The notes under the pieces: generated by a model
Database searches by the model: none
What the model was told of the DNA's origin: nothing
The model's input: only the letters and a program-made list of their open reading frames with translations
Translations under genes and position numbers: made by a program
Source of the DNA: Candidatus Saccharimonadota bacterium
GTDB lineage: Bacteria > Patescibacteriota > Gracilibacteria > BD1-5 > UBA2023
DNA: 32,000 bases
Direction of reading: 5' to 3'
NCBI GenBank assembly: GCA_963706795.1
Contig: OY970170.1
Span: 480,001-512,000, forward strand
Shown: positions 1 through 32,000 of the stretch, piece after piece
How the letters are laid out: each line of letters begins with the position of its first letter
How positions within the stretch are numbered: the stretch's first letter is position 1

Positions 1-521
1 TCGATCATCGCATCATGCGCGCCTTCGAACCATGTATCGAAGAGGAATTTGTGGAGCTCACTGAGCTTTGGCGCCTTGAAACTAAATCCACGCCCCTGGA
101 GTTTGCAATACTCAGTCGATGAACGCATCGTACATACTGATTTGATCGGCTGATAGTCACCAGGTCGCCCAATACGTGCAAGTTCATCTCGGATTACTTG
201 TTCATCGTATTCAATATTATGCCCAACAACAACGTCTGTGGTATTGAGATACTTGATGAATTTTTGATATACCTCCTCGATATATGGCGCATCTTCGACA
301 TCTTTATCATAGATTCCATGAACCTGCGAAGCTCCAAACGGAATAGAGATGCGTGGCTTAATAAAAATATTCACGCGCTCGATTTCTACGAAGCCGTTTT
401 CCTTAGAAATTTCACCAAGAATTCCCGCAAATTGAACAATATACGGCTGCTCTGCCAAGGTTCCTCCCCTGACGCTAAAACCGGTCGTTTCCGTGTCGAA
501 TACAAATGCTTTCATGGGCAT
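1..521 (-). CDS. DEDDh-type 3'-5' exonuclease (DnaQ/epsilon-like); the C-terminus runs off the window edge
   Basis: The minus-strand frame is open from ATG 521 (MPMKAFVFDTETTG..., alternative ATG 515) to position 1 with no stop. It carries Exo I FDTETTG, Exo II GHNIEYD and Exo III AHDAMI (H-x4-D). It is absent from the ORF track because no stop lies in the window. Confidence 0.8.
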   Translation of the reverse strand, partial: MPMKAFVFDTETTGFSVRGGTLAEQPYIVQFAGILGEISKENGFVEIERVNIFIKPRISIPFGASQVHGIYDKDVEDAPYIEEVYQKFIKYLNTTDVVVGHNIEYDEQVIRDELARIGRPGDYQPIKSVCTMRSSTEYCKLQGRGFSFKAPKLSELHKFLFDTWFEGAHDAMI

Positions 522-634
522 GGATTATAGGGAGAAGGGGTGAAAATCAAGGGTGAAAATTACAATATGAGAGTTCTATTTTGCTATCAGAATCTGCCCC
601 TTATACTTTCTCGAGTTCTATCAACTTTCAGTCT

Positions 635-1192
635 ATGAAAAAACCTCGCGTCATATATCTCCACGGAAATGATGCAACTCATTGGTCTTTTGCTTGGGCG
701 CCCTGGCTAAAAAGCGAATTGGAGAAGTGAGGCTATCCAGTGTTTTTTGAAACATTTCCAGATTCGATCATGGCACGAAGTGAATACTGGTTGCCATTCT
801 TAAAAGAACATATTCAAGCCTGAGAGAATGACATCCTCGTAGGATGGTCTTCCGGTGCTGTAGCAGCTATGAGATACGCCGAACAGCAGAAGATTCTGTG
901 ATCTATCCTTGTTGGAGCATGCTATACAGATTTAGGTGATGACAAGGAGAAGATTTCTGGCTACTATTCTCAGCCCTGGTTATGGGAAAAGATACGCGGG
1001 AACCAAGATTGGATTGTACAATTTGGCTCCGTAGATGACCCCTGTATTCCCATAGAGGAAAGCAGGTTTGTTAATACTAAACTCAATTCAGAGTATACCG
1101 AATTTCCTGACCGTGAACACTTTGGTTGGCCAACAAAGATGTTAGAGTTTCCTGAGTTACTAGATGCGATTATTCACTATACAGGTAAGTAG
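635..1192 (+). CDS. RBBP9/YdeN-family serine hydrolase (alpha/beta fold), 185 aa
   Basis: Runs from ATG 635 to TAG 1190-1192, with three in-frame TGA codons (728, 821, 899) read as Gly. Motifs: VIYLHGN, WLPF, nucleophile elbow GWSSGAVAAMRYAE, DLGDDKEKISGYYSQPWLWEKI, IVQFGSVDDP and EHFG, giving a Ser/Asp/His triad. It is invisible in the standard-code ORF track. Confidence 0.8.
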
Positions 1193-1411
1193 GTAACTCT
1201 TTTTATGAATATCACAAAAAACAATAGCATAGCACTTAGAGTTTAATTATTTATACGTTCTGGTACGAGTGGTATCCGCATTGGCACAGCTTGAATCGCT
1301 CTCCATGAAGAAAAGATTTATGAAAGAAAGGAGGTAATTTGCAAAACCTATCCTGACCCATAGAATGCACCAGATTGAGATCCCTCAATCATAGACGCCA
1401 CGGAGGTTCAT

Positions 1412-1756
1412 ATGAAATACATTTTGCATCTCACAAAAATCAATACATTGACGGGTTTAGTAATCTGCTTGTTTATATTTGAGAGAGACGGGGATCGTAC
1501 ACGTTTTATGGGTATGGATCATACGGAGATTGGATGTATTTTATTTCTAATACATATATTGATCTCTGTAATGTTCGCGCACTACGTCATACACCTTGAT
1601 GATGAATGGTTATGCAGAAGCGATATACACTATAATGAAAGGTTACGAATGCACCGCTTGGGCAATAAAAAGTTATGTGGTTTTCATGTAGCATACACCA
1701 CAATCTTGCTAGGCTATATATGCAATGTTTACCTGAGTTGACACTCCACCTGCTAA
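1412..1756 (+). CDS. Hypothetical small Cys/His-rich membrane protein (114 aa under table 25)
   Basis: ORF track 1412-1741 extended through TGA 1739-1741 to TAA 1754-1756. It has a canonical GGAGG 5 nt upstream of the ATG and three hydrophobic segments. I recognise no family motif. Confidence 0.3.
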
Positions 1757-1810
1757 AATCTGATCTACACCAACTTCAGCATTGTCTGTATGATCAACAA
1801 TCTATAAAAT

Positions 1811-1838
1811 AAAGCCCATCCTTATTCGGATGGGCTTT
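1811..1838. terminator. Bidirectional rho-independent terminator hairpin
   Basis: AAAGCCCATCC-TTATTC-GGATGGGCTTT is flanked by an A-rich 5' side and a T-rich 3' side. On the minus strand it is followed by TTTATTTTAT. Confidence 0.6.
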
Positions 1839-1866
1839 TACTTATAACAGAAGTAGTCTCTAGGAA

Positions 1867-1990
1867 TTCTTCAAAAACGATGGGATTTGTATGAAGACTG
1901 CCGCTAGCGCCCCCTATTGTGAGGTTACCGGAGTGCGGTGTAGCAGTGCTACACCAAACGAGGAAACGCAAAGCCTGAACACGAAGATCG
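1867..1990 (-). repeat. Copy A of a conserved structured intergenic element (candidate complex terminator or 3'UTR RNA); strand is tentative
   Basis: Aligns to 28639-28738 by eye. Shared blocks are TTCTTSAAAAACGATGRGATTTG, TACCGGAGTG, a GYGTAGC/GCTACRC hairpin and AACGAGGAA. It starts 7 nt after the secY stop, and the minus-strand reading ends in CGTTTTT. Confidence 0.5.
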
Positions 1991-1997
1991 AAGCTAT

Positions 1998-3326
1998 TTA
2001 GTAGAACTTCTTGTAGTCGTAACTTTTAAGTTCTGTATCAACGCGGCGGATAAGCTCGAGAACCACTCCGACAACGATGATGAGTCCTGCTCCTGAGATG
2101 AGGAAGTCGATGCGGGCATTTCCGGATACGTCGATGAGACCGAACTGGTTGTTGATCTTGGTGATGATGTATGGGAATACTGCAACGAGTGCGAGGAATG
2201 ATCCTCCGAAGAGATTGAGATGCATGCTCGTCTTTTCGAGGTAGTCGATGGTTTCTTTTCCTGGACGGATACCTGGGATATAACCTCCGCGCTTTTGGAT
2301 AGATTCGGCGATTTCGCTTGGGTTGAAGACGATCGAGATATAGAAGTATGAGAATGCTACGATGAGTGCAAAATATACTCCGATATAGATCCATCCTGGA
2401 TTATTCATTGAGAAGTTCTCAGTGAGGAACTGCCCGAGCTCTGCCATTCGGCCTGCTCCACGAGTCGTGAGAATCTGACCAATAAGCGATGGGAATGTAA
2501 CGATTGAGACTGCGAAGATGATAGGAATCATTCCCGCCTGATTCACGCGAATCGGGAAATATGATCGTTCATCGCGTCCTGTCTTTGTATAGATGAGTGG
2601 AATCTTGCGGTATCCTTCGGTGAACTTAATGATGATGAACATGACGAGGAGTGTCATGATGATGAGTCCAATAAGGAGTCCGAAGTTTCCAACCGTGAGA
2701 TACTGTCCAATGTGCTCTGGAACACCTGCGAGAACACCTGCGAAGATGATCATTGATGAACCATTTCCGATACCTGATTCATTGATGATATCACCGAGCC
2801 AGAGGAGGAGCATTGTACCCGCTGTAATGAAGAGCATCGCAGGAAGTACAACATGGAGGAAGTCCTTTGTATCGATAAGCATTCCTGCATTACCAGTGGC
2901 GCTTCCTACGAGTGTATTGATGAGGATGATCATCCCATAACTCTGAGCAAACGCAAGAGGAAGGGCGAGATACTTCGTGTAATTGTTGATCTTGCGCTGT
3001 CCGAGCTCTCCTTCTTTTTTAAGAGATTCGAGCTGAGGAATAACGACTCCGAGGAGCTGGATGATAATCACCGCATTAATATATGGTGAAAGTCCCATCA
3101 AAACGATCGAGAAGTGCTCAAGTCCACCACCAAGAAGTGATGCAAAGAATGCAAGACCCTGACTTGCTTGAAGGAATTTTTGAAGATTCGCGATAGCATC
3201 AACATTGACTCCAGGAACTGGAATAATTGAGAGGAACTTGTAAACAAGAACGAGACCAATTGTAATGAGGATCTTTTTGCGTACATCTTCTGAATTCCAG
3301 ATGCGGGAAATATTTTTGAGAATCAT
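1998..3326 (-). CDS. secY: Preprotein translocase subunit SecY
   Basis: ORF-track protein with the typical 10-TM SecY sequence, sitting after rplO. I prefer the ATG at 3326 (MILKNISRIWNS...) over the upstream GTG at 3380. The stop is TAA. Confidence 0.93.
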   Translation of the reverse strand: MILKNISRIWNSEDVRKKILITIGLVLVYKFLSIIPVPGVNVDAIANLQKFLQASQGLAFFASLLGGGLEHFSIVLMGLSPYINAVIIIQLLGVVIPQLESLKKEGELGQRKINNYTKYLALPLAFAQSYGMIILINTLVGSATGNAGMLIDTKDFLHVVLPAMLFITAGTMLLLWLGDIINESGIGNGSSMIIFAGVLAGVPEHIGQYLTVGNFGLLIGLIIMTLLVMFIIIKFTEGYRKIPLIYTKTGRDERSYFPIRVNQAGMIPIIFAVSIVTFPSLIGQILTTRGAGRMAELGQFLTENFSMNNPGWIYIGVYFALIVAFSYFYISIVFNPSEIAESIQKRGGYIPGIRPGKETIDYLEKTSMHLNLFGGSFLALVAVFPYIITKINNQFGLIDVSGNARIDFLISGAGLIIVVGVVLELIRRVDTELKSYDYKKFY

Positions 3327-3470: not shown

Positions 3471-3474
3471 TTTC

Positions 3475-4933: not shown

Positions 4934-5488
4934 TTATTTTTTGGCTGCAGTTTTTCCTGCTTTTCGGCGAACGTATTCTCCAACGTAGCGGATTCCCTTA
5001 CCCTTGTATGGTTCAGGTGGCTTGATTTCACGAACGAGAGCCGAGAAGTATCCTACCTGCTGCTTATCAATTCCGGTGATGTGAATAACGTTCTTTTCTT
5101 TCGGGTCGGCAGCTACGGTAACTCCAGCTGGAGCGTCCATGAATACCTTGTGAGAGAAACCAACAGAGAGAGTGATTTTCTGAGGACTTGTGACTTCGAA
5201 TTTGTATCCAACTCCTTGGATTTCGAGTGACTTCTTGTAACCGTCAGATACACCGACTACCATATTGGCAACGAGTGCTCGAGTGAGTCCCCAGAACGCG
5301 CGGTCCTGAGCATTCTCAGGGTCAGCAACCACAACGTGGAGTTCCTGACCTTCGAGATTCACACTTACGGCCTCTTGAAGGGTGAGGGAGAGTTCTCCCT
5401 TTGAGCCCTTTACTGTGATCTTCTTCCCTTCGATTGTTGTGGTTACTCCAGCGGGGAGTACAACGGGAAGCTTTCAGATTCGAGACAT
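4934..5488 (-). CDS. rplF: 50S ribosomal protein L6 (uL6), 184 aa
   Basis: ORF track 4934-5362 extended upstream through TGA 5474-5476. The N-terminus then reads MSRI-G-KLPVVLPAGV, the conserved SRIGK motif with UGA at the Gly. Confidence 0.92.
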
Positions 5489-6707: not shown

Positions 6708-7013
6708 TTAGGCGAGTTTCTTTCCAGATTTCTTCGCGATGCGGATCTTCTTACCACCTTCGATCTTAAAACCGATTCGTGTGATGAGCTTTGTTTCTGG
6801 ATCGATAGCTGACACGTTTGAAACGTGGATAGCTTTTTCCATTTCAACAATCTGACCAGGAGTCGTTCCTTGTTTCTTGATGTGCTTTTTTACGATGTTG
6901 ACACCTTCGATGAGAACACGCTCTGCTTTTTTGTCGACAGAAAGGACTTTACCTTCCTTGCCTTTATCTTTTCAGGCGATAACTCGTACGATGTCTCAGC
7001 TGTGAATTTTCAT
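6708..7013 (-). CDS. rplX: 50S ribosomal protein L24 (uL24), 101 aa
   Basis: Absent from the standard-code track. Table-25 translation gives MKIHS-G-DIVRVIA-G-KDKGKEGKVLSV..., with TGA at 6996-6998 and 6972-6974 on the two conserved KOW-motif glycines. The stop is TAA 6708-6710. Confidence 0.9.
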
Positions 7014-9271: not shown

Positions 9272-9535
9272 TTACTTATTTCCTGAGTGAGAGATGAATC
9301 GTCGAGTGAATGAGAATTCACCAAGCTTGTGACCTACCATATCTTCTGTTACGAAAACTGGAGTGTGTACTTTACCATTGTGAACTCCGAAGGTGTGACC
9401 AACGAATTCTGGGGTAACAGTACAGTCACGTGCCCAAGTACGGATGACGGTCTTTTTTCCAGACTCGTTGAGCTTTGCAACTTTAGCCGCAAGCCTTACA
9501 TCGATATAGGGTCACTTTTTAAGACTACGTGTCAT
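9272..9535 (-). CDS. rpsS: 30S ribosomal protein S19 (uS19), 87 aa
   Basis: Absent from the standard-code track. Table-25 translation gives MTRSLKK-G-PYIDVRL...[29 protein letters not shown], with TGA 9512-9514 at the invariant Gly of the KKGP motif. Confidence 0.92.
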
Positions 9536-11361: not shown

Positions 11362-11916
11362 TTAGAAATTGAATACGAGAACTGAATTTCGAGCTCCTGG
11401 AATTGGACCGCGTACTGCGATAATCCCGAGCTCCTTGTTGACGAGTTCAACAGGAACTTTTTTGAGTGTGACAGTGTCAGTACCCATGTGTCCGTGCATC
11501 TTCTGTCCTGGTTTTGTTCGGCGTGGCTTACGCGTACCGATAGAACCGAGTGCTCGGTGGAATTTTGATCCGTGTCCAGCAGGACCTCCAGAGAAGTTGT
11601 GGCGCTTCATCGCACCAGCAAAACCCTTACCCTTAGAGATACCACGAACAGTAAGTGTCTCGATGCCATCAAGGACATCAATAGTAACTGCATCGCCAGC
11701 CTTGAGTGATGTGAGAGCTCCACTGTATGGAACTTCGTGCATCTCAGTACGCTTACCGAATGTAGATTCGAGGACTACTGCCTCGTAACCATCGATAGCG
11801 ACTGTCTTGATCTGAGCGATCTTAGTCACTGGAAATTTAACGAGCGTTACAGGTACGAACGCTTCGCCTTTGAGAAGTCGAGTCATCTCGAGCTTCGATA
11901 CAACGATTCAAGCCAT
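11362..11916 (-). CDS. rplC: 50S ribosomal protein L3 (uL3), 184 aa
   Basis: ORF track 11362-11886 extended upstream through TGA 11908-11910 to ATG 11916. The N-terminus is MA-G-IVVSKLEMTRLL..., and the protein carries ...KGKGFAGAMKRHNFSGGPAGHGS... Confidence 0.92.
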
Positions 11917-12143: not shown

Positions 12144-12926
12144 ATGAACCGAATTAGTTACAATCTCGATGATACCACTACGATCATCACCGGTGGCTCA
12201 AGCGGAATAGGGCTCGCAACCGCAGAGCTCGTCGCCAAATCAGGCGGACACGTCATCGTGACCGAAAGTCGCACCCCAGAAAAAACTGCTCTCGCACTCG
12301 AACGCATCAAGAATGCACGGATTAATCCCACGACTGAAGTCTTGGCTTTGCCATACGAAGCCTCTGATGAGGATTCTGCGGCAAAATTCTTTGAGACTGT
12401 GAAAAATATTGGTCGACGTATCGATTATCTTGTACACGGCATCGCCTTTAGCCCAGATACCCCTTTTGAGAAGCAAACAGCTGCACTCTGGAACAAAGTG
12501 CACGAAGTAAATAGTACAGGGGCCTTCATTGCTCTGCAGCAAGCATGGAAGGTAATGGAACATCAGGAGATCATTGACAAGGCCAGAGGAAGAATAGTGC
12601 TTATTACGTCAACCAATGGAATTGATAGTTATGGATCCTTCTCGGCACCATATGATGATTCGAAGTGAGGCAATAATACGACGGTGCGCAATCTTGGAGA
12701 ACTGTTCCATAAAGAATATAAGATTATCCTAAACGGATTCGCACCAGGCTGGGTAGATACCGGTATGAATGATACGCTCACACCAGAAGATCGAGCAAAA
12801 GAATCAGAAAAGATCTGGTCGGGTGAATGGGCAACTCCCGAAGAGATGGCTATAAATATCATTGCGCTACTCCTTCTCCCTTATAAATCAGGTCGGGTGG
12901 ATGTCGCAGACGGCGGATACCGCTAG
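12144..12926 (+). CDS. Short-chain dehydrogenase/reductase (SDR), 260 aa
   Basis: ORFs 12144-12668 and 12684-12926 are in the same frame and join through TGA 12666-12668. Cofactor motif TGGSSGIG, catalytic Y-DDS-K followed by the UGA-encoded Gly. The stop is TAG. Confidence 0.85.
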
Positions 12927-13485: not shown

Positions 13486-14823
13486 TTATTCGACGAACGT
13501 GATCCTGAGACTAAAGCCTCGTTCGATATCACTCTGGATTTGGAGTGTCCCTCCATGGATTTTGGCGATCTTATCGACGATCGAGAGCCCGATACCGATA
13601 CCGCGCGCAGAGCCTCCAGTTCGAGCAGAATCCTCTTGATAAAACTTCTCATGCAAAAATGGAATACTCGCACGCTTTACTCCGTGTCCATTGTCCGAAA
13701 ATACCATCTGAACAAGGCCCAAACGTCGCGAACACTTGATGTTCAGCGTCGTATTCGGACCTGCGTATTTGAGGAAATTTGAGATGATATTATGAGCAAG
13801 TCTGAGAATGTAATTTCGTTCAAGATTCACGATGAATGGCTCGGTTTTATCAAATATGATGGACTGGCAACTTTTGGCGAGACTTGGCGAATATTCTTTT
13901 TCGAGGAAGGCGCAGAGCTCATTGAAGTCGAAATTGGAACGTTTTGGCTTTTCTCATTCGGTGGCAGCGAGGCGCTCGTATTCCATCATTGAATCCGTCG
14001 TCATAATGATGCGTTCGATCTCAGAGCGAACAATGGACATTCATTCGGCATCGAGTTGCACTACGCCATCCTCAACTCACTCGAGAAATATTTTGAGCGC
14101 GGTTACGGGTGTCTTGATCTCATGCGAAAAATCCGAGAGGAAATCCGAGCGGATTTTTTCTTGGCGAGCGAGATTTGCTGATAGCGTGTTTGCCGCAGCG
14201 ACAAGTGGTGCAAATTCGTCTGTGCGGGTATAGACGACCGGCGAATAGTCTCGGCTCTCTGTCAGTTTTGCAAGTCGCTCAGAGATCGCAAAAGTCGGTT
14301 TAAAAATAACTCGCGTCCAGATATAGGTAATCACGAGGATGAGCGAGATGAGTCCGATATTAACCACAAAAAGCATGAGGAGCATTCGCAACAGGAAGTG
14401 CTGCTCAGGCGTCTCATCCTTTGAGAGTACGATCGAGACGAGATTTCGGAGGAAATTTTCGACGCTATTGAGGAAGAGAACTTCTTTGATGGTATCTGTC
14501 GCAAATCCTATTTTTTGAAGGGATTCGAAGGTACTATTATTGATTTTTTGTGGAACCGGAACGTAGGACTCGAGAGACTTCGAGAGAGACTTGAGATCCT
14601 CGAGGGTGAGGCGGTATTCTTCGATGGTCGCTGGATCGAGATCCTTTGAGGCTATGAAGGCATTGATGAGCGAATATTCATCATTGGGAAACTCCTTTCG
14701 AACTTCTTCGACATAGTCATGAAAATAGCGTGGTGCAAAATAGACAACACTCGCAATATTCCCGATGATGAGGAGCACCATCGAGACAGAGAGAAAGGCG
14801 ATGAATTTTTGCGAAAAGCGCAT
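13486..14823 (-). CDS. Sensor histidine kinase, 445 aa
   Basis: ORFs 14077-14823 and 13486-13830 plus the segment between them form one frame through three TGA codons (14077, 14041, 13954). It has two TM segments, the H-box FLSDFSHEIKTPVTAL, and an HATPase domain with ...DNGHGV... and GIGIGLSIV. The stop is TAA. Confidence 0.88.
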
Positions 14824-15532: not shown

Positions 15533-16717
15533 TTAGGATTTAATTTTTTTGAGTTTTGAAATGAGTCATTTTGATGTGTTTTGTGGGAAAAATACAATCT
15601 TGAGGATCGCGAGTACTGGAAGTGTAAAGAGGACTCCAAAGAGACCAAAGAGACTTCCTGCAAGTGCCATAGATACGAGCACGGTGAAATTAGAGAGATC
15701 GAGCGCATGTCCTTGGATGCGGGGTACAAGGAAAAGATTTTCGATTTCTTGAATCATAAAATACATGATCGCCACAGCACCGACTGCTACCGGACCAAGC
15801 GACAAGGCGATGATGAGCGCTGGAATAGAAGCAATGATCGGCCCAATTACCGGAACAAGCTCACAGATCGCCGCGATAAACGCAAGCGAAAAATGTCCAC
15901 GAATATTGATCCCGAATACCCATTCGAGGATGTAGAGCCCAACATAGGTTGCAACAAAAATTGAACACGACAGCAAGAACTGCCCACGAATCCATGTAAG
16001 GAGAAGTCGGTCTACATCAGGAGTGACTTCCTTGAGCTTTTTTTCGACATCTGAAGGTAAGAGCGAAAGGCAGAAGTGGTAGACCTCTTTACGCTCTAAG
16101 GCGAGGAAGAAAGTGATGGCAAATACAAATCCTGCTGTCGATATCTTGCCAAAAAGACCCCAGACTCCCGATCCAAGCGTGCCTGCAATTCCCGAAAGGC
16201 TATCCGAAAACCAAGTGAGGATCTCTTTGCCATGATTTTGCACAAAGCCTATAATCGCCTGCTTATCGATATCGAGCCCACTGACATTGAGGAGCGTAAT
16301 CCCTGGAATGGCGCTAATATCACCCTGTGCGAACTTGTCCGACATATTTTGCACCCAATCCTTGACTATGCCGGCAAAATTGATGAATTCTGTCGAGATA
16401 ATCGGCACGACTGCAAACAAAAAGAGGAGAATGAATGCAAAAAATAGGACATATAATGCAATGAGTGCCAACCACGCTGGGACTCATTTTTGCTCCGCCC
16501 GTGTGAGAATCGGAGAAATAAGCGTTACTAGAAGCCCCGCAAAGAGTACGGCGATAACAATATCGCCAGCAATATATATCGCCCAAAGCACGACTGCAAA
16601 TACCGTGATCGTCACAAGACGCAAGAGGAAGTTTGTAATTTCGGATGATTTCATAAGCCCATGATAGAGAGAACCGCACTGTTGTAAACTGGGAAGCAAG
16701 AACGGAGATTTTGACAT
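15533..16717 (-). CDS. AI-2E family (PerM/UPF0118) membrane transporter, 394 aa
   Basis: ORFs 16484-16723 and 15566-16471 join through TGA 16484-16486. The C-terminus extends through TGA 15566-15568 to TAA 15533-15535, 3 nt before the response-regulator ATG. It is a multi-TM protein with ...ELVPVIGPIIASIPALIIAL.... I prefer the ATG at 16717 to the TTG at 16723. Confidence 0.8.
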
Positions 16718-16779: not shown

Positions 16780-17649
16780 ATGAATCACTTAACTGAAACT
16801 TTTCGCAAAACTTTAGCCAAGTGGGAAGGTGGCAAGAAAAGACATCTCTCCAGACTGGTCGAAGGTGGACGTGGAGCTTACGCATATGAATTTCTGCAAA
16901 CACTCCTTGAAGTTACCCACACAGGGAGTTTCGTCGAAATAAAATGTCAGTTACATATTCTGACAAGTTTCATTAGCAAAGACAAGGCTCTGGAACAAAT
17001 CACATACCATGACTCGGTATTCCGCAAGAATCTTTACAATCTCTCACGGGTTCTAGTTACCGAAATCAAAGAAAGGAGCAAACGCCAATTCACGCCTGAC
17101 TTTCGGACAGCAATATCTCTCTGGGGCGAAACAAGAAAGAAATTCGAAGATTTGGATAAAGAAGATCAGTATACTCTTCTGACTGAATTTTTTCATAACC
17201 TCCATGATATGGCCGACTTTGGCCAAGCAGAAGAGAGATTTAGCCAACTATCAAGCGTACTGCGCTTGATAGAAATGAAAAAGCAAAGGGCTAAAGACAA
17301 GGACAAAGAGATCTGGTGGACAATGGATCAGTATCCGGTTATAGACCTTCTAAAGAAGGCTCTCATTACACAAATAGGCGAAATCCAAAAATTCCCAACC
17401 GCCAGAATACAAAAGATGCCTGAACAATTGCCTCTTCTCGAAGAAGCATGAGTCATGGCAGAAGTACTTATCGGACAGCATGAACTGTCCGATTTTTTTA
17501 TGGCAAATTTTGACAAAAATCCTCTCACGGATACGCTTATCTCAACGACTATTTTTCGAGAGCACTATGCCACTTCGATTTGCTACATATTTTTTCTTCT
17601 TTTTCTTTCAGAGCCAGCTGAAGGGTATGTTTGTATAGTCTATCAATAG
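16780..17649 (+). CDS. Hypothetical, predicted all-helical protein, 289 aa under table 25
   Basis: ORFs 16780-17451 and 17455-17649 are in the same frame and join through TGA 17449-17451. An intrinsic terminator follows the TAG at 17647-17649, not the TGA. I recognise no motif. Confidence 0.55.
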
Positions 17650-17709: not shown

Positions 17710-18054
17710 ATGTCATCAAATAGCCAACTCTCTCCCATAGAACAAAAATTCTGGGAACTCTACTCTGGTGCGGATAGCCAGTATCCATATCAGACGCTTC
17801 GTGATGGTATTCGCAAATCAGCCATGACCCTCCTTATTGAAGCTCATCCAGAAATGCCCGTTGATCTTGAATGTGTGATTACGCTCATCAGCGAACGAGC
17901 AAAGTCACTTGCTACTCCCTCTCGCGAATACCAAGATGCACTGAAACAACTCGAATCACTCTGAACAAACGAAACTGCGGTCATCGCACGAATTCGAGGT
18001 CGCTACCAAAGAACACTGATTGTTTCAAAAGACGAAGAACTCGTTTCGTTGTAG
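17710..18054 (+). CDS. Hypothetical protein, 114 aa under table 25
   Basis: ORF 17710-17964 extended through TGA 17962-17964 to TAG 18052-18054. I recognise no motif. Confidence 0.5.
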
Positions 18055-18090: not shown

Positions 18091-20706
18091 TTATTCATCA
18101 GTTGGTGCGTCAGTATCCGCTGCGGGATCGTCTGTTTCTTCTTCGGCTTTTGGCACAACCGTCATGCTCGTAAATGTATCTTTTGCTGCCTTTACCTTAG
18201 CAAGGATGACACCTTGTGTGACACGGCTCGTAACACGAACGGTTGCGAGTGGCACACGAACGGTTTGTCCCATGCGAGAAATGAGGATGACTTCACCTTC
18301 TTTTTTAACTTCCTCTGTAAGAAGCTGGACTCCGATGATATCTCCGGTCTTTGCGGTCATTGATCCGGCTTTTACACCTGATCCACCTCGACCTTGCTCG
18401 CGGTAGTCATCAATATCGCTCACCTTCCCCATACCGCTTTCACTGACGGTGAATACGTATTTGGCTCCTTCATCTACTACGTCAGCCTCGACGACTGCGT
18501 CGTCTTCTCCGATACGCATTCCACGTACACCGGCGGCAGCACGACCCATAATGCGGACGTCTTCTTCAAAGAATTGGATTGCCTTCCCTTTCTTAGAAAC
18601 CATAAGGATCTTGTCTGTTCCGTGTGTGACACGTACCCAACCGAGCTCATCACCATCTTTTGGTTTCATAACGATCAATCCTGAGGCTCGGATATTCGAA
18701 ACATCTTCGAGATCAATACGCTTGATGACTGCCTTTTTAGAGATGAGTGCGAAGTGCTTACCCGAAGTTTCAGTCATATCTACGATCGCTGCGATGGATT
18801 CTTCTTTGGCGAGCGAGAGGAAATTGATGATCGGCTGACCCTTAGCAGTACGCTGAGCCTCTGGGATTTCATAAGCCGGAAGCTTAAATACGCGACCAGT
18901 ATTCGTGAAGAATAGGAGATCGTTGTGGTTCTTGGTAGAAACGATGATCTTTACCTCATCTTCGTCTTTTACGGCAGTATTTACCCCCTTTCCACCACGA
19001 CGCTGCGTGCGGAAAGCTGAGGACTTAATACGCTTAACGTAAGAATTCTTTGAGAGCGTAATAACGACTTCTTCATTTGGGATCGTGTCTTTTGGAGACC
19101 ATTCTCCGACTCATCCAGCCTGAATTTCTGTACGGCGTGGATCTGCGAATCGATCCTTCATATCTGCGAGCTCAGCACCGATGATTGCATCGATACGAGC
19201 GGGTTTTGCGAGGATGTCCTTGAGATCAGCAATGAGGAGGAGTTTTTCGGCGAGTTCGTCTTCAATCTTTTTGCGCTCAAGACCTGCGAGACGCTGGAGC
19301 TGCATTTCGAGGATGGCATCTGCTTGCTTTTCAGAGAGCTTGAAGCTCACCATGAGATTCGTTTTTGCTTCTTCTTTGGTTGTAGAAGATCGGATCGTTT
19401 TAATGACGGCATCGATATTATCGAGGGCGATCTTGAGACCTTCGAGGATGTGTGCGCGAGCCTCTGCGATGCGGAGCTCGAATTGCGTGCGGCGAGTCAC
19501 AACTTCTTTACGGTGTCCGAGGAATTCCTCGAGCATCTCAACAAGGTTGAAAAGCTTTGGTTGGCGTCCGCGATCGTGGAGTGCGATCATGTTGTACCCG
19601 AAGCTCGTCTGAAGTGGAGTGAGCTTGTAGAGCTGATTGAGGATCTTTTTTGGGAAGGCGTCTTTCTTCATTTCGATCACGATTCGGATATCCCCGAGTC
19701 CCTTCGATTCGTCACGAAGATCTGATATCCCAACGATGATTTTCTCCTGAACAAGATCGGCGATCTTCTCGATGAATGTCTTCTTGTTGACCTGGTATGG
19801 GATCTCAGTAATGATGATCGCCTTGCGACCGCTCTTGAGCTCGTCGATCTCAGCCCGACCACGCATGATGATAGATCCACGTCCTGTCGCGTAGGCAGTA
19901 TGAATATCCTTGCGATTGTATACGATACCTCCCGTTGGGAAGTCTGGCCCCTTGATGAATTCAAGAAGCTTGTCGATCGTGATCTCTGTAGGATCCTGAC
20001 ACGTAAGCATGAACTGAAGTCCGTCGATCAATTCTCCGAGGTTGTGCGGAGGGATGTTCGTCGCCATACCAACCGCGATACCTACTGATCCATTGAGAAG
20101 GAGATTTGGAATACGCGTTGGGAGAACAGTTGGTTCTTCACGAGAAGCATCGTAGTTATCTCTCCAGTCAACGGTATCCTTGTCAATATCTGCGAGCATG
20201 AGTTCACCGAGCTTTGCCATCTTCACTTCCGTATAACGCATGGCAGCCGCTCCGTCTCCATCCATAGAACCGAAGTTTCCCTGTCCATCCACGAGCATGT
20301 AGCGCATCGAGAAGTCCTGTGCCATACGTACCATAGCCTCGTATACTGAGCTATCTCCGTGTGGATGATAACGTCCGAGTACCGCTCCGACGATCTGAGC
20401 AGACTTACGGTGCTTACCAGTTGCACGAACACCTTCCTCGTACATTGCGTAGAGAATACGTCGGTGTACCGGCTTGAATCCGTCACGAATGTCCGGAAGT
20501 GCACGCATAACGATAACGCTCATCGCGTAATCGAGGTAGCAATTTTCCATCTCAGAGACGATGGATCGGTCGCTGTCACCAGCATAGGTCACAGCGCTCG
20601 TGATATTCGTCGGTACGAATGGAGGTTCTTCTTCTGCAGAAACCGCTTCAGGAAGCGCTTCTGAAAGCTCCTCAGGAAGCTCTTCGTTTTCGAGTGGGGA
20701 TGTCAT
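18091..20706 (-). CDS. gyrA: DNA gyrase subunit A, 871 aa from ATG 20706
   Basis: ORFs 19111-20760 and 18091-18777 plus the intervening 333 nt form one frame through TGA 19111-19113. Motifs: [24 protein letters not shown], ...HPHGD..., C-terminal beta-pinwheel repeats and an acidic tail. The start is uncertain (ATG 20706 versus upstream TTG 20760). Confidence 0.93.
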
Positions 20707-20828: not shown

Positions 20829-21491
20829 ATGGCCGAATTTATCGTATTTGAGGGTATCGATGGAAGTGGGAAATGAACCCAGGTAGAGCTGGTAGCTGCA
20901 GCACTTCGAGCAAATGGAAAGAAGGTGGCGATTTTGGATTTTCCAAGATATAAAGAGGCTTCGGGTTTTATGGTCAGCAAATACCTCAATGGCGAATACG
21001 GATCACTCTCCGAAATCAGCGCCGAACTCGCGAGTACGTTTTATGCAATTGATCGATTTGATGCCAAAGCAGAAACCATAAAGGCACTGACAGAAAATGA
21101 CTACGTCCTCGCAAATCGCTATGTCAGCTCAAATATGATCCACCAGGCAACAAAGCTAGATTCGTATAAGGAGATCGATGCATTTTTGGATTGGGTCTAC
21201 GATCTCGAATTCCGAATCTTTGGCATCCCAAAGCCAGATCGTGTACTCTTCCTCAAAATATCAGCCGAAACATCTACCCGACTCATAGGCCTCAAAGCTA
21301 AAAGAGACTATATCATTGACGACAGCAATAAAGATCTCCACGAAAAAGACATCAATCATCTCCGCAAAGCCAGTGATCTGGCGCTGTATGTGGCTTCCAA
21401 ATTTCCAAACTGGACGATTATAGAATGCGAGGAGGCGGGAGATATTCTCCCGAAAGAAATCGTCACGAAGCGCATCCTTTCTTATCTCTAA
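20829..21491 (+). CDS. tmk: Thymidylate kinase, 220 aa
   Basis: ORF 20925-21491 extended upstream through TGA 20874-20876 to ATG 20829. The P-loop reads FIVFEGIDGSGK-G-TQ, followed by ...DRY/ANRY... kinase motifs. Confidence 0.85.
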
Positions 21492-21492: not shown

Positions 21493-22887
21493 ATGGATCA
21501 ACAGCACATGAGTATATCACGAGGTTTTACGCTCATAGAAATCCTTATTGCGGTAACAATAAGCGCTTTTATATTTACGGGGTTGATCACTTTTGTGGGA
21601 TCGGGGCTCGCAAGCGTGAGTCGTTCCGAAAAAAGCATGGCGAATGATCTCAAATGAGCTGGGATCGATAGACTCCTGAGATCAATCACTACAGAAAATA
21701 GTCAGCTCGTCGTATGAACAGGATCACTTCCTACAGGCTATCTCACGGGCATATTACTGGCCACACGCACTCAGACATATCCATATGTCTTTATCGGAGC
21801 CGAATCCTTTACTGGATATTGTGCAACCAATCCGAGTCTCACACTCACAAGACTCGTGGCTGTCGGCGGATACGCACCAAGATCAGGTGAAAATCTCACG
21901 AGCGGAGTATATACATTGGATCCTTTAAAACAGAGCGTTTATTCGGGCACTACACAAATCATCTGAACGGGCGATGTTGGCAACCTCTTAAACAGTGATC
22001 CCTTAAAATCAGAACTCTCACATCCCTCATCACTCGCACAAATTGGAGATATACTCTATATTGCGGATACAGGGAATTCACGAGTTTTGAGCTATAACAC
22101 ACTCACAAATACGCTCACAGAATTTTTATGAATCTCTGATGGCATATCTCATCCTGTCAGTCTCAAAAACGAATCCGGCAATCTCCTCATCGGAGCAGAT
22201 AATGGACTATTTCGAATACGAGAATCTACTGATGCCTGAGATAAGGCGACTATAGCCATGACACACACGGGCGATCTCACATTTGATAGCATTGCACTCG
22301 ATTTTTCGGGAATCACTACGCTCACGAGTCCAACGAATCCGACAGATTTTACTCTTGGTGGGGTAATACAAAATAGCGCAAGCGATGTGGTTACGACATG
22401 AAGCTCTCTCGTCTATACATTTACCGGTGCAGCCCAGACTCTCACATCAGGAAGTCTTCTCAAGATACAAATTGGATCAATTGCACCAGCTCCAACTACT
22501 GCAGGGGGCTATGTACTCCATCTCACGCTCAAAAACGCATGAGTGTCGGTATTTGCAGATACATTCCCCTATTTTGTGAAGGGCGACAGCGATATGCAAA
22601 CACGCGCCTGACTCGTTATCGAACAGATCTCCAAAAAACCAAGAGTTTCAAATGTGGTTTCAAGCACAGATTTTCAGAGTGAAGCGATAGATATAGCTTC
22701 GTTTTTAAACTCAAATGGACTTGAACGCTTTACGAGTGGCGAACCCATAGATCGCGTGAGCATTATCACTAATAAAACACTCGCTACGATCGCATATAGA
22801 GGATTTAGCATATACGACTGCTCCCCCGATCAAAATCACCGCATCATCAGCCACATTAAAAAAATCCGAGTACGAGACTCGGATTAA
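21493..22887 (+). CDS. Large type IV pilin-like (prepilin-type N-terminal methylation domain) protein, 464 aa
   Basis: One table-25 frame runs from ATG 21493 (alternative ATG 21508) to TAA 22885-22887 with 8 in-frame TGA codons. The class III signal is SRG-FTLIEILIAVTISAF. The body is Thr/Ser/Gly-rich with an NHL-like stretch, LYIADTGNSRVLSYN. The standard-code track shows only fragments. Confidence 0.75.
22858..22884 (-). terminator. Rho-independent terminator for the VirB2-like gene, embedded in the 3' end of the convergent pilin gene
   Basis: The minus strand reads ATCCGAGT-CTCGT-ACTCGGAT followed by TTTTTT. Confidence 0.6.
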
Positions 22888-22898: not shown

Positions 22899-23315
22899 TT
22901 AGAATTTATCGAAGCTATCATCGATGCTCGGATTTTTAGAGCTTCCGAGATCGATAGTATCTTTTGATCCAAAGAACTTCGTTGAGAGGTTCTGGATGGT
23001 TATAAAGATTTCTTTAGGATCCACATATTTTGAGACATTGAGTCCGAGGAGATCACCAATCTTTGGAGCCAGGAAGAGTGAGATGATGATGACGATGATT
23101 CCGATAACTGAGTATCGAATAGAATTTACTGCAGGTTTTACTTTTTCTTCTTTACCACCGGAGAGGATGAGTTTGACTCCTCCTCAGAGGATAAATGCTA
23201 CTGAGAGAAGTCCAGAAACAAGAACCACGAGAGCAATCGCCACCTTTACGATGTCGTCGAGATTATAGCTATTCGTGATGAAGTCGGGACCTGCAGCAAA
23301 TGCAATATCAAACAT
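22899..23315 (-). CDS. Small two-TM membrane protein, TrbC/VirB2-like pilin family typical of CPR genomes, 138 aa
   Basis: Runs from ATG 23315 to TAA 22899-22901 with one in-frame TGA (23184-23186). The layout is hydrophobic helix, then GGGVKLILSGGKEEKVKPAVNSIRYSVIGIIVIIISLF, i.e. TM, a Gly-rich basic loop, then TM. The plus-strand ORF 22924-23268 is its antisense shadow. Confidence 0.55.
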
Positions 23316-26247: not shown

Positions 26248-26460
26248 TTAGATCTTATTAGGATTAATCGAGTATTTTTTGAATTTCTTCATAACAAATT
26301 CAAAAGCGTTCTTGATCCAAAGAGTTTCACCTTCAAAGGCAAGACGAGCTTGGAGCTGCTTGTAGTGCTTGATTGTATTTTCTAGTTTCTTCCCAGATTT
26401 GCGTCCTTTTCGGTTAACCGAATAGACATTCTGGCGAGGTCACTTATTTCTGAGTCCCAT
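26248..26460 (-). CDS. 70-aa basic protein, tentatively ribosomal protein bS20-like (N-terminal and central part)
   Basis: MGLRNK-G-PRQNVYSVNRKGRKSGKKLENTIKHYKQ...KNAFEFVMKKFKKYSINPNKI, with one in-frame TGA at 26440-26442. The spacing of RQ, RKS, TIK, AF and I..NK resembles S20. This is judged by eye only. Confidence 0.35.
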
Positions 26461-26817: not shown

Positions 26818-27729
26818 TTAGCCCTTCTGTTTGACGAATCTGTAGGATGACACGAGCCCACTGAATGCTCAAAGGAAAAGCAAAAGTCCGGACAAGATGA
26901 CGTAACGCTCAGTGACACTCCCAAAAAATTGATCGATGAAAATCGGTGCTGCAAGCAAAATCGAAAAATCCATATTCTTAAGCAAGATCACAAAGACGAT
27001 CGTACTAACAATCAGTGCAGACCCCGTATATATAAGCCCCTGGAGCACAAATGGGCCATATATATATCGCTTCTGTCCGCCAACGAGTTCGGTGATCTTG
27101 ATTTCTTCGCGGAAATAAAAGACCGCATTACCGATACTCTGGAATACCACTACAAAGACTGAGAAGAGAAAAAAACCAATGATGGCAAAAAGTCCGTACT
27201 GGAGCGAGACCAGAATATGCACCACATCTCTAATGCGATCGTACTGAGCCTTGTAATCCAAGAACGACTTTTTGCGTTTATCGTCAGCAATATCAATGGT
27301 ATTTGTGTGCTCCGAAATGACCCGATCGAGGTCGGCATAATTTTCGATCGGGACATTTTTGATGGAGATCGTACTCGGAAGCGGGTTTTCGGAGTCATTC
27401 TCTATAACTTTTGCGAGATCAGGGTCACGTTTTTTAAGGATCTCGAAGGCATCGGCAGCCGAGATGAATTTTGTATCTATATTCGGACTGACCGTACGGA
27501 GCGCTTCAAGTGTATCAATAACCTCTCTGCTCGTACTTGTAAGCCCCGATTTGGTGCTCACGGTAAGTGAGAGTCGCGCATTAACGTTCTCTGCAAGCGA
27601 CTTCGTCACGAACTCCGCAAAAAAGAGCACGAAGATCAAGAAGGTCATGAGTGTAATAACCACGACCGATGAAAGCGAGAGGAAGAAGCTTCGAAAAATA
27701 TTTTTGAGCGCGTAGCGTAAGAGTCGCAT
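26818..27729 (-). CDS. ftsX: Cell-division ABC transporter permease FtsX-like, 303 aa
   Basis: ORF 26869-27729 extended through TGA 26869-26871 to TAA 26818-26820. It has an N-terminal TM, an extracytoplasmic domain with ...ENPLPSTISIKNV..., and three C-terminal TM segments. Confidence 0.8.
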
Positions 27730-29228: not shown

Positions 29229-29648
29229 TTATTTCTTTGCCTTAGGCTTCTTTGCTCCGTAGAGAGAGCGGCTTCGTCCACGCTTTTCAACACCCTGTGT
29301 ATCGAGAACTCCTCGAACGATATGGTATCGAACTCCTGGAAGATCCTTCGCACGTCCTCCACGAACGAGAACTACCGAGTGTTCCTGAAGGTTGTGACCT
29401 TCTCCACCGATGTAGCAGATAACCTCGTACCCGTTTGTAAGACGAACCTTTGCAACCTTTCGGAGAGCCGAGTTTGGCTTCTTTGGAGTCATAGTGTACA
29501 CCTTTGTACATACACCTCGCTTCTGTGGAGATGCAAGAGCAGTAGTTGTACGCTTGATGCTGTTTCTGCTGAGTTGAAGAGCTGGAGACTTACTCTTGCG
29601 AGCTTTGTCTTTACGAGGCTTTCGGATGAGCTGATTAATCGTTGTCAT
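29229..29648 (-). CDS. rpsL: 30S ribosomal protein S12 (uS12)
   Basis: ORF-track protein [10 protein letters not shown]...[19 protein letters not shown]...[13 protein letters not shown]... Confidence 0.95.
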
Positions 29649-29666
29649 GAGAGATAATATCGGGAA

Positions 29667-30062
29667 TTAACGCTTGGACCACTGAGATGCCTTTCGAGCC
29701 TTGTGGAGACCTGGTTTCTTTCGTTCTACCTTACGAGCATCTCGTGTGAGCATTCCTGCACCACGAAGTGTCTTTCGGAGATCTTCGCTCGATTCTACGA
29801 GGGCGCGAGCAAGACCGTGGGCGATAGCCTGAGCCTGTGCAGATTCACCTCCGCCTTCCACCTTGATATCGAATCGAACACGATCTGTAAGTCCTGCGAC
29901 TTTAATCGGAGCGAAAAGATGTGTGAAAAGGTCACCACGGTGTACATACTCAGTGAGTGGTTTACCGTTGACCGTAGATTCACCTGGTGTAATGAAGAGG
30001 CGAACCTGAGCGACTGCCGACTTTCGGCGTCCTACAGCGTAGAAATACTTGAGAGCTGTCAT
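29667..30062 (-). CDS. rpsI: 30S ribosomal protein S9 (uS9)
   Basis: ORF-track protein ...GRRKSAVAQVRL...TRDAR.VERKK.G..KARK..Q.SKR. Confidence 0.93.
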   Translation of the reverse strand: MTALKYFYAVGRRKSAVAQVRLFITPGESTVNGKPLTEYVHRGDLFTHLFAPIKVAGLTDRVRFDIKVEGGGESAQAQAIAHGLARALVESSEDLRKTLRGAGMLTRDARKVERKKPGLHKARKASQWSKR

Positions 30063-30071
30063 AAAAAGAGA

Positions 30072-30503
30072 CTAGATAGAGAGAGTTTCAGGTTGTTGTG
30101 CAGCATACTGATGTTCAGTACCTACTTCGAGCTTCAGACGTTGAATCATCGTAGAACGGTGAGAGTTCTTTGGGAGCATTCCAGAAACTGCATGGCGAAG
30201 AACCTCAGTAGGCTTTTTAACGCGCATTCGTTCGAGAGGAACTTCCTTGAGACCACCCATGTATTGTGAGTGAGATCGGTAGAGCTTCTGCTCTTCCTTA
30301 GAACCAGTAACCGCAACCTTCCCTGCATTGAGAACTACAACGTAGTCACCATTGTCAACGTGAGGAGCAAAGTCTACTTTATTCTTACCTTTAAGGTACG
30401 TAGCGATCAATGTTGCGAGGCGACCGAGGGTCTTTCCTTCAGCATCGATGATGAACCACTTTCGGGCATCACCTTTGATCTGCTTTGGCATGAGTGTTTT
30501 CAT
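30072..30503 (-). CDS. rplM: 50S ribosomal protein L13 (uL13)
   Basis: ORF-track protein ...KWFIIDAEGKTLGRLAT.IA..L.GK....F.PHVD.GDYVVV.NA... Confidence 0.93.
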   Translation of the reverse strand: MKTLMPKQIKGDARKWFIIDAEGKTLGRLATLIATYLKGKNKVDFAPHVDNGDYVVVLNAGKVAVTGSKEEQKLYRSHSQYMGGLKEVPLERMRVKKPTEVLRHAVSGMLPKNSHRSTMIQRLKLEVGTEHQYAAQQPETLSI

Positions 30504-30509
30504 TGTGCT

Positions 30510-30869
30510 TTATTTAACGAGTTCGAGTTTCACAACTTTTGCAGCATCACCATCACGATACTTGATCGCAGTGATACGAGTAAATCCAGAGGTCTGATCC
30601 TTGAACTTTGGAGCAACATTGTTGAAGAGTTCAACAGAAGCAGCCTTAGTGAAAAGAATAGACATAACCTCACGGATAGCAACCATCTCATTGTCGCTAT
30701 TAGCAACATTTATAAGACGATCGATTTCTCCGACGATAGCATTTGCTTGCTTCTCAGTTGTCGTGATTGACTTGTGAGTGAAGAAGCTCGTCAAAAGATT
30801 GCGAAGCACAGCAGAGCGGTGGTCTTTATCTTTTGTGTGGAATTTTACTTTTTTAACGCGGTGTCGCAT
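30510..30869 (-). CDS. rplQ: 50S ribosomal protein L17 (bL17)
   Basis: ORF-track protein MRHRVKKVKF...HRSAVLRNLLTSFF.H..I.TT.. Confidence 0.9.
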   Translation of the reverse strand: MRHRVKKVKFHTKDKDHRSAVLRNLLTSFFTHKSITTTEKQANAIVGEIDRLINVANSDNEMVAIREVMSILFTKAASVELFNNVAPKFKDQTSGFTRITAIKYRDGDAAKVVKLELVK

Positions 30870-30892
30870 AGTATGGTGATTTTGAAAACTTT

Positions 30893-31873
30893 TTAGTCGT
30901 CTCCGAGGAGTTTGAGTCCACGCTCACGAAGTGCGTCGCGGACTTCTGTCATTGCCTTCTTTCCGAATCCCTTGATCGAAGAGAGCTTTGCTTCTGTACA
31001 CTTTGTAAGCTGCTCGATGGAGAGAATCTCACCATTAACGAGAGCATTGAGTGTACGAGGAGAAAGTCCGATGATTTCAATAGGAGTATAGGTTTCTTTT
31101 TCGAGATCAGCTTTGATTTCTTGTTTTTCTTTTTCGAGGATTTCCTTGATATCTCCGATGAATGAACCTTCTACCTGAAGACCTTCTTCGTTGAAGATTC
31201 CAAAGTAAGAAGTGAGCATGTCACCTGAAAATCTAAGAACTTCTTCAGGAGTCATGATTCCGTTTGTGGCAATAACCATTTCGAGTGCATCGAGATTGGT
31301 CATTTCACCTACACGCTGAGACTTTACTTCGTACTTTACTGAGAGAACTGGAGAGAAGTTTGCATCGATGAGGAGTACATTCACGTCTTCTTCGCGCTCT
31401 TTGAGAACATCAACTCCGAGGTAACCAACTGATTTTTCAACGCGGATACTCATGTCGAGCTCGAATCCATCGCGGTCAATTTCAGTGATATAGAGATCAG
31501 GATTCTGAATCTTTACATTAGAGCTTGCTTTGATGTCCTTTGCGCTAACAACTCCTGCCTTTGATTTTACGATGTGGATCCATTCCATATCAGTTCCGCT
31601 CATAGAAACCACGAGGCCCTTGAGATTGAGGAGGATGTCGAGTACTGAATTCTTGATTCCTGGGATTGTAGAGTATTCGTGACCGATTCCCTTGATCTTA
31701 ACTCCGGTAACTCGGCAGCCTGGGATCGAAGAGAGCATCACCCGACGAAGAGAGTTTCCAATAGTTACGCCGTATCCTGAAGGAAGTGGCTGAACCGTGA
31801 ACTTCGCTTCATGAATACCCGTCGTCTCCTGGAGAATCTTTGGTACGCCGATGAGATTGTGGATGATGTGCAT
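30893..31873 (-). CDS. rpoA: DNA-directed RNA polymerase subunit alpha
   Basis: ORF-track protein ...PLPSGYGVTIGNSLRRVMLSSIPG... with a C-terminal HhH domain ...LSPRTLNAL...I.QL.... I prefer ATG 31873 (MHIIHNL...) to the upstream TTG 31891. Confidence 0.93.
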   Translation of the reverse strand: MHIIHNLIGVPKILQETTGIHEAKFTVQPLPSGYGVTIGNSLRRVMLSSIPGCRVTGVKIKGIGHEYSTIPGIKNSVLDILLNLKGLVVSMSGTDMEWIHIVKSKAGVVSAKDIKASSNVKIQNPDLYITEIDRDGFELDMSIRVEKSVGYLGVDVLKEREEDVNVLLIDANFSPVLSVKYEVKSQRVGEMTNLDALEMVIATNGIMTPEEVLRFSGDMLTSYFGIFNEEGLQVEGSFIGDIKEILEKEKQEIKADLEKETYTPIEIIGLSPRTLNALVNGEILSIEQLTKCTEAKLSSIKGFGKKAMTEVRDALRERGLKLLGDD

Positions 31874-31915
31874 AGAAGAATGATGAGACAAGTAGCAGAG
31901 AGAATGCCCTTGAGA

Positions 31916-32000
31916 TTATTTCGAGTAGAATTCGATGATCTTTTGGATGTCGATAGAACGGTCGAAATCTTCTTTTGCTGGGAGAGCCTTAACAGTAATT
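31916..32000 (-). CDS. rpsD: 30S ribosomal protein S4 (uS4), C-terminal 27 codons only
   Basis: The minus-strand frame reads ...ITVKALPAKEDFDRSIDIQKIIEFYSK* and ends at TAA (31916-31918). Its position directly upstream of rpoA fits. Confidence 0.7.
   Translation of the reverse strand, partial: ITVKALPAKEDFDRSIDIQKIIEFYSK

Follow-up and report, generated by a model that had tools for sequence, protein, structure and literature searches.

A 32-kb ribosomal protein locus of a Gracilibacteria (BD1-5) genome in which UGA almost certainly encodes glycine

The codon UGA almost certainly specifies glycine throughout a 32,000-nucleotide stretch of contig OY970170.1 (assembly GCA_963706795.1, positions 480,001 to 512,000; hereafter the window), where termination would be left to UAA and UAG only, as in NCBI translation table 25. 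The finding, deduced from sequence comparison, is correct yet already known for the lineage, and nothing in the window departs from table 25. The window has a guanine plus cytosine (GC) content of 45.3%. Its 46 genes, listed as coding sequences (CDS) with explicit start codons, were chosen among the open reading frames (ORFs) by a codon-usage score and then checked with Pfam.

Related loci were collected with uL2 as query, keeping one genome per species and at most 10 kb on each flank, which yielded 56 loci (cited by L number where one has to be singled out). Nearly all carry the label of metagenome-assembled genomes (MAGs) called Gracilibacteria, Patescibacteria or "Peribacteria". The uL2 of the window is 62-95% identical to that of Gracilibacteria MAGs, and about 20 syntenic ribosomal protein genes align. 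The nearest locus (JBMOJK010000001.1) has 95% identity in uL2 and a mean of 85% over 26 genes, and the complete Gracilibacteria HOT-871 genome has 62% identity in uL2. In-frame TGA opposite Gly is present in 52 of 52 loci besides four outgroups. The latter, a Parcubacteria MAG, a Saccharibacteria MAG and two other distant MAGs, show no in-frame TGA over 1,400-3,000 aligned codons, which makes the standard code probable for them. These relatives confirm that the organism falls within the UGA-recoded Gracilibacteria/BD1-5 clade, as proposed in the initial annotation, the placement being made by identity and synteny and not by a formal tree.

In-frame TGA codons and gene ends

The genes of the window contain 29 in-frame TGA codons distributed over 16 of the 46 CDS (Table 1), one of the 16, the ORF at 26248-26460, being doubtful. 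The initial annotation had counted about 30 in 17 genes, which is slightly high; the existence of in-frame TGA stands, and the positions that it quoted for uL6, uS19, uL24 (two sites), uL3, tmk and the short-chain dehydrogenase (SDR) are exact and agree with direct translation. The 45 complete genes end with TAA (34) or TAG (11) and never with TGA, a result whose probability, for TGA at 20-30% of stops, would be 4e-5 to 1e-7. Gene uS14, added later to the 46-gene table, also ends with TAA or TAG and has no TGA, in line with the earlier statement that every gene end checked is of these two types. Nearly all ribosomal protein genes of the relatives end with TAA or TAG as well. The total space of ORFs of at least 100 amino acids rises from 46 kb to 96 kb once TGA is dropped from the set of stops; dropping TAA or TAG instead gives only 64 kb each. 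Residues downstream of a first TGA amount to 27% of the total.

Taking the TGAs for true stops or errors would require pseudogenes, assembly or sequencing errors, selenocysteine, or programmed read-through in an organism with the standard code. Such a reading agrees with the 30 of 46 genes that are free of TGA under table 11 and with the public gene calls of this organism, which treat TGA as a stop. It would reduce the essential proteins uL3, uL6, uL24 and uS19 to 2-7 residues, and none of the 45 gene ends uses the codon. Sequence past the TGAs is conserved and in frame, and the same TGA positions are kept in dozens of related genomes. One of them is seen again in an independent assembly: Logan assembly ERR12037365 is 100% identical over window positions 26697-31768, the TGA of ftsX included, which answers the question of assembly error raised with the initial annotation. 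The probability left to true stops or errors is negligible.

Amino acid identity at TGA positions

ORFs were translated with TGA masked as X to keep the alignments free of bias toward any residue, and the codons were then read off. Opposite the TGA sites of the window, the relatives have 157 Gly codons, 123 TGA and 53 others, that is, Gly in 157 of 210 non-TGA codons. In the reciprocal direction, the window has 1645 Gly codons, 119 TGA and 255 others opposite the in-frame TGAs of relatives, with Gly in 1645 of about 1900 non-TGA codons. The background frequency of Gly over the aligned positions is 8.9%. Codetta-like log-odds over aligned columns assign TGA to G (+16.4), the runner-up being N (-19.7), and the remaining 61 scored codons all have their standard meaning; the call for CGG rests on two columns (2.2 vs 1.8, a margin of 0.4). 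Sixteen sites have three or more informative homologues; Gly leads at 11 of them and ties at one more (binomial P = 8e-9). Among the 16 window TGA sites covered by the outgroups that lack in-frame TGA, 12 have Gly. The Gly enrichment anticipated in the initial annotation is thus found in both directions of comparison, to the exclusion of Trp, Cys and stop readings. Selenocysteine was considered separately and rejected: no Cys stands opposite any TGA in the aligned relatives, and the TGAs are spread over genes for ribosomal proteins, gyrA, pilins and others.

Table 4, in which UGA means tryptophan as in Mycoplasmatales and several insect endosymbionts, would restore the reading frames equally well. 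Trp-rich TGA columns, named beforehand as its expected sign, are not what the counts show: Trp accounts for 2 of 210 non-TGA codons opposite the window sites, both at a single site, and for none of about 1900 opposite the TGAs of relatives. Columns of TGG score cleanly as W (+90) where TGA scores as G. Some database homologues do have W at TGA columns. Among 35 FtsX homologues, the residue at codon 287 is G in 24, A in 3, S in 1 and W in 7; the W-bearing proteins have W at other Gly columns too (LSWF vs LSGF), and this recurrence at several Gly columns per sequence suggests that a gene caller translated TGA with table 4. A tryptophan reading is extremely improbable.

Several observations weigh against glycine. 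Four informative sites are not dominated by Gly: codon 290 of the histidine kinase (variable, with E, A, D, T and P), codon 78 of the AI-2E transporter (G in L001, the closest relative; K in those farther away), codon 32 of the hydrolase (variable among 120 homologues, with L 56, R 27 and G 1) and codon 175 of the SDR (A 92, G 30, S 8 and W 1 among 144 homologues). The last one had been presented as a conserved glycine after the YxxxK lysine; it is a small-residue column that is mostly A. These variable or small-residue columns are compatible with Gly and give it no support. At codon 44 of the T4SS_pilin-like protein, the TGA faces TGG (Trp) in both relatives available, L010 and L011, within the motif FI(L/I)-W/X-GGV; it is the only Trp-aligned TGA of the window. 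Finally, neither the window nor any of the 56 related loci contains a tRNA(UCA) detected by ARAGORN, and Rfam finds none in the window.

The T4SS pilin site could reflect either a Trp-to-Gly substitution through one G-to-A change or a hint of ambiguity between UGA and UGG. In the latter case UGA would be read mostly as Gly and partly as Trp by wobble of a tRNA(UCA) over UGG and UGA, or would retain some termination, its meaning depending on the site. A blur of UGA and UGG by wobble at U34 has been raised as possible in principle for these lineages (PMC8629427), and the strong avoidance of TGA in the bodies of highly expressed genes is what a costly or error-prone codon might show. The TGA/TGG correspondence concerns one of 29 sites and two sequences, the single substitution explains it equally well, and nothing in the sequence requires ambiguity, which we regard as very unlikely, if somewhat less so than a full tryptophan reading.

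For glycine, the reading preferred here, the literature on the lineage suggests how decoding would operate: UGA would be read by a tRNA-Gly whose anticodon is UCA and which carries the identity elements for glycine, and loss of release factor 2 would leave the codon without a competitor.

Ribosomal protein sites

The five TGAs in ribosomal proteins fall in columns where relatives use mainly Gly or TGA. Codon 8 of uS19 is TGA in 44 relatives and Gly in 12, with no other residue, and Gly is found in four of the four outgroups without in-frame TGA. Codon 5 of uL6 has Gly in 25 relatives, TGA in 20 and V in 1, and MSRIG is present in the five best uL6 chains of the PDB. In uL24, codon 14 has Gly in 44 relatives, TGA in 5 and L in 1, and codon 6 has TGA in 23, Gly in 18 and D, K or N in 8; KKGD and AGKDKGK in the best-matching solved uL24 chains (PDB) place Gly at both sites. 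Codon 3 of uL3 is TGA in 27 relatives, Gly in 24 and F in 2, both of the latter being distant outgroups. Of these glycines, described earlier as universally conserved, codon 5 of uL6, codon 6 of uL24 and codon 3 of uL3 are just majority Gly, with occurrences of V, N, D, K or F.

Use of TGA among genes and along genes

TGA behaves as a disfavoured glycine codon. It represents 1.2% of the glycine-family codons in ribosomal and core genes vs 10.5% in the other genes (Fisher p = 6e-8). It is rare in ribosomal genes, absent from tuf and frequent in accessory genes, with eight occurrences in the pilin-like gene, as first noticed in the initial annotation. Across the 56 loci, the share of TGA among Gly codons is about 40-50% at 23-27% GC and 1-5% at 40-46% GC; at 55-60% GC it is close to zero outside N-terminal sites.

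All five ribosomal TGAs of the window lie within the first 14 codons. TGA makes up 5 of the 28 ribosomal Gly codons in the first 16 codons and none of the 281 later ones (p = 4e-6). The pattern extends to 26 recoded relatives of mid or high GC, in which TGA is typically 10-26% of the N-terminal Gly codons and less than 5% of those in the gene body. In six of seven relatives with 55-60% GC, in-frame TGA of ribosomal proteins is found only at codon 8 of uS19, codon 3 of uL3 and, where aligned, codon 5 of uL6; the exceptions in this GC range are an additional TGA at codon 48 of uL6 in L017 and the lack of any of these TGAs in L028. Over the 3,100-4,900 codons aligned per locus, the 55-60% GC relatives have a few more TGAs in accessory genes. 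Codon 8 of uS19 is TGA in 44 of the 52 recoded loci, at GC contents from 23% to 60%. The synonymous sites that flank it track GC freely, including choices at the first codon position (AGA/CGC, TTA/CTC, AGT/TCC), and all neighbouring synonymous sites in the 55-60% GC relatives are shifted to GC-rich codons.

Part of the N-terminal pattern is ordinary. Non-optimal codons as a whole are enriched at the 5' ends of these genes (8.9% vs 5.1%; AAA over AAG, TTT over TTC), and TGA can be left only through one T-to-G transversion. Judged by eye, no Shine-Dalgarno-like motif is visible upstream of these genes. Replacement of TGA by GGA makes the mRNA structure predicted near the start more stable by 1.1 kcal/mol, and by 1.8 kcal/mol at GC of at least 0.40, an effect about twice that of control T-to-G changes in samples that are not phylogenetically independent. 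The lack of a visible Shine-Dalgarno motif and the predicted structure shift point towards selection on start-proximal TGA. Our own reading of the pattern is that TGA, as the one AT-rich codon for glycine, would be tolerated or slightly favoured near the start, and site-specific selection on N-terminal TGA is possible.

The handful of UGA codons still found in ribosomal protein genes may be maintained by selection and not be leftovers, a tentative idea to which we give less than even chances. A start-proximal UGA could keep initiation regions without an obvious Shine-Dalgarno motif unstructured; alternatively, it could couple ribosomal protein synthesis to the supply of tRNA-Gly(UCA). If true, the retained UGA would as a by-product hold the genome to the reassigned code, even among descendants of high GC. 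Our literature searches on the glycine meaning of UGA in these lineages gave no account of the N-terminal pattern, and the N-terminal survival of UGA in mid- and high-GC members of the clade may be new. The pattern bears on the upkeep of a reassigned codon once mutational pressure stops favouring it.

Other genes with in-frame TGA

Reading TGA as a sense codon had been said to restore gyrA, the histidine kinase, the AI-2E permease, ftsX and the hydrolase among other genes. Pfam domains crossing the TGAs sustain this for all of these but ftsX, whose match is below threshold. In GyrA the TGA falls between the DNA_topoisoIV domain and six C-terminal blades, and codon 532 is G in seven relatives and M in one, within the motif QAG-G-VGEW. 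In the histidine kinase, HisKA overlaps with the first and second TGAs, and HATPase_c follows the third; codon 249 faces G 11 and TGA 2, and codon 261 faces G 5, N 5, TGA 1, S 1 and T 1. The AI-2E_transport match covers positions 3-322 of 327, across codon 78; codon 384 belongs to a non-conserved tail (G 1, P 1). The hydrolase matches PF06821 weakly across its TGAs (E 6.5e-4, 20.1 bits, under the 22-bit cut-off), and its family is confirmed by homologues of up to 72% identity that carry PF06821. Among its 120 homologues, codon 63 is G in 81 and codon 89 is G in 112.

FtsX gives weak matches to Pfam FtsX and FtsX_ECD, both under the curated cut-offs; that of the FtsX C-terminal domain crosses the TGA with 20.5 bits vs a cut-off of 25.5, and the 16 residues beyond the TGA are conserved in homologues. 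The gene adjoins an ABC-transporter ATPase remnant of about 530 nt in three reading frames, with recognisable P-loop (GASGSGKTT), Q-loop (IGYLTQD) and signature (LSGGQ) motifs. The remnant, identical over its length in Logan contig L058, is probably a pseudogene judging from its short span; the window has no intact ftsE.

The thymidylate kinase (Tmk) has its TGA right after the GSGK of the P-loop. Relatives have TGA, G or A at this position, and the closest family (Tmk-ThyX type, n=11) has G 7, A 2, S 1 and T 1. Solved Tmks (PDB) have R, in the Mycobacterium tuberculosis enzyme, or S, in a second one, and the earlier view of a universal glycine does not hold for this residue. The closest homologues (P0001-P0011) are mostly proteins of 630-810 aa with a ThyX domain (PF02511) in 7 of 11 and a thymidylate synthase domain (PF00303) in 1 of 11. 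Unlike these fused homologues, the tmk of the window is a stand-alone gene.

The eight TGAs of the 464-aa pilin-like protein, summed over only two aligned relatives, face Gly 9, D 3, T 1, A 1 and one gap. The T4SS_pilin-like protein matches PF18895 weakly, with 26.0 bits for a cut-off of 26.6. Three ORFs are less informative. The 289-aa hypothetical protein, an ORF bounded by TAA/TAG stops only, has no homologue found, which leaves its column uninformative. The 114-aa one has T at codon 85 in L001, the sole relative aligned through the site. The doubtful 70-aa ORF lies between tuf and the tRNA-Ala gene, has a positive coding score and gives neither a homologue in the 56 loci nor a Pfam match.

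Table 1. Features of the window and positions of in-frame TGA codons. Rows without coordinates give groups of genes, some of which also have a row of their own.
Feature	Coordinates	Strand	Description	In-frame TGA
Hydrolase	635..1192	plus	Ser_hydrolase-family alpha/beta hydrolase, 185 aa	728-730, 821-823, 899-901 (codons 32, 63, 89)
Ribosomal protein operon	1998-11916	minus	secY to uL3	
uL6	4934..5488	minus	ribosomal protein	5474-5476 (codon 5, MSRI-X-K)
uS14	5926-6150	minus	74 aa, two C-x-x-C pairs, between uS8 and uL5	
uL24	6708..7013	minus	ribosomal protein	6996-6998 (codon 6), 6972-6974 (codon 14, KOW motif A-X-KDKGK)
uS19	9272..9535	minus	ribosomal protein	9512-9514 (codon 8, SLKK-X-P)
uL3	11362..11916	minus	ribosomal protein	11908-11910 (codon 3, MA-X-I)
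SDR	12144..12926	plus	short-chain dehydrogenase, 260 aa; Pfam adh_short	12666-12668 (codon 175, right after YxxxK lysine)
Histidine kinase	13486..14823	minus	445 aa	14077-14079, 14041-14043, 13954-13956 (codons 249, 261, 290)
AI-2E transporter	15533..16717	minus	AI-2E family transporter, 394 aa	16484-16486 (codon 78), 15566-15568 (codon 384)
Hypothetical protein	16780..17649	plus	289 aa	17449-17451 (codon 224)
Hypothetical protein	17710..18054	plus	114 aa	17962-17964 (codon 85)
gyrA	18091..20706	minus	871 aa	19111-19113 (codon 532)
tmk	20829..21491	plus	thymidylate kinase, 220 aa	20874-20876 (codon 16, GSGK-X-TQ)
Pilin-like protein	21493..22887	plus	464 aa, N-terminal methylation motif; Pfam N_methyl	21655-21657, 21715-21717, 21964-21966, 22129-22131, 22237-22239, 22399-22401, 22540-22542, 22609-22611
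T4SS_pilin-like protein	22899..23315	minus	small membrane protein, 138 aa	23184-23186 (codon 44)
tRNA-Leu(UAA)	24189-24273	minus	ARAGORN, Rfam	
Doubtful ORF	26248..26460	minus	70 aa	26440-26442 (codon 7)
tRNA-Ala(UGC)	26546-26622	minus	ARAGORN, Rfam	
tRNA-Asp(GUC)	26654-26730	minus	ARAGORN, Rfam	
ftsX	26818..27729	minus	303 aa	26869-26871 (codon 287)
ABC-transporter ATPase remnant	27736-28270	minus	probable pseudogene	
Second ribosomal block			bL27, uS7, uS12, uS9, uL13, bL17, rpoA	
Further core genes			tuf, uS10, bL28, bS16	
Accessory genes			exonuclease, Ser_hydrolase, SDR, histidine kinase and its response regulator, AI-2E transporter, gyrA, tmk, 464-aa pilin-like protein, T4SS_pilin-like protein, ftsX, some hypotheticals	

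Non-coding stretch and remaining features

The region 1193-1997, about 800 nt between the hydrolase gene and secY, has no convincing ORF and a GC content of 39%. Just past the secY stop, 70 nt (about 1929-1998) share 96% identity with L001, above the flanking coding DNA, and contain the hairpin GGTGTAGCA-CT-GCTACACC. A 40-nt repeat (GCAGTCTTCATACAAATC...GAAGAATTCCTAG) of the same region recurs in L001. Rfam gives nothing credible on the 800-nt stretch and only three tRNAs on the whole window; Leu(UAA), Ala(UGC) and Asp(GUC) are the only tRNA genes found. At the other end of the window, positions 30846-32000 are 99.3% identical over rpoA to L057 (Logan SRR34292206). This match in a second run indicates that independent samples contain the organism or a close strain of it.

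Consequences for annotation

Table 25 is required for any annotation of this genome. Under the standard code, 16 of the 46 genes are truncated or split, and uL3, uL6, uL24 and uS19 vanish; this is 35% of the genes, and the earlier expectation that nearly every annotation would change was too strong. The public gene calls of this organism show errors of this kind: FtsX (P0132) stops at residue 286 where 303 are expected, and the SDR is split at its TGA into P0192 (residues 1-174) and P0194 (residues 181-260). Calls with TGA as stop and table-4 Trp in database homologues can both mislead homology work. Since the code and the lineage are already established, the present result confirms and does not discover.

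Comparison with known genetic codes

The window shares with table 4, used by Mycoplasmatales and reduced endosymbionts, the use of UGA as a sense codon and the presumed loss of release factor 2. It differs in the amino acid, which is Gly here and not Trp, and in belonging to an unrelated lineage.

The extended code of Absconditabacteria combines UGA as Gly with CGA and CGG as Trp (Shulgina and Eddy 2021, PMC8629427). UGA as Gly is common to both, and CGG is rare here: nine codons in all CDS, or 9.8 per 10,000, vs 160-186 per 10,000 for CGA, CGC and CGT, which is very low for 45% GC. The aligned CGG codons face Arg codons at gyrA R284 (three relatives), Arg or Lys at position 37 of uS8 and a variable column at position 73 of the AI-2E transporter, never Trp. 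CGG is also found at R44 of rpoA, with no homologue to check, an arginine that we take to be conserved in RpoA. A reassignment of CGA and CGG to Trp was rejected on these sites and on CGA, which scores as Arg over 84 columns.

The match is with table 25, known from Gracilibacteria (BD1-5/GN02) and Absconditabacteria (SR1). UGA as Gly with a tRNA-Gly(UCA) is described in both groups (PMC8629427), prfB is missing from all BD1-5 genomes and UGA as Gly was validated by proteomics (PMC6851277), and the GTDB class JAEDAM01 has been assigned table 25 (preprint 10.64898/2026.05.24.727570); these sources bear out the initial remark that the code is known for the SR1/Gracilibacteria lineages. A hallmark of the lineage is a tRNA(UCA) with G1:C72, C2:G71, G3:C70 and U73. 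Like its members, the window has in-frame UGA at Gly positions and only UAA and UAG as stops, and its nearest relatives are Gracilibacteria MAGs with their own in-frame TGA opposite Gly. The window thus shows four defining features of table 25: UGA within reading frames, Gly at the UGA columns, absence of UGA stops and membership of the clade. We see no difference in kind in this window, only one of degree: low-GC table 25 relatives use UGA for 40-50% of their Gly codons, whereas the window is sparing, with 31.5 UGA per 10,000 codons, about 4% of its Gly codons.

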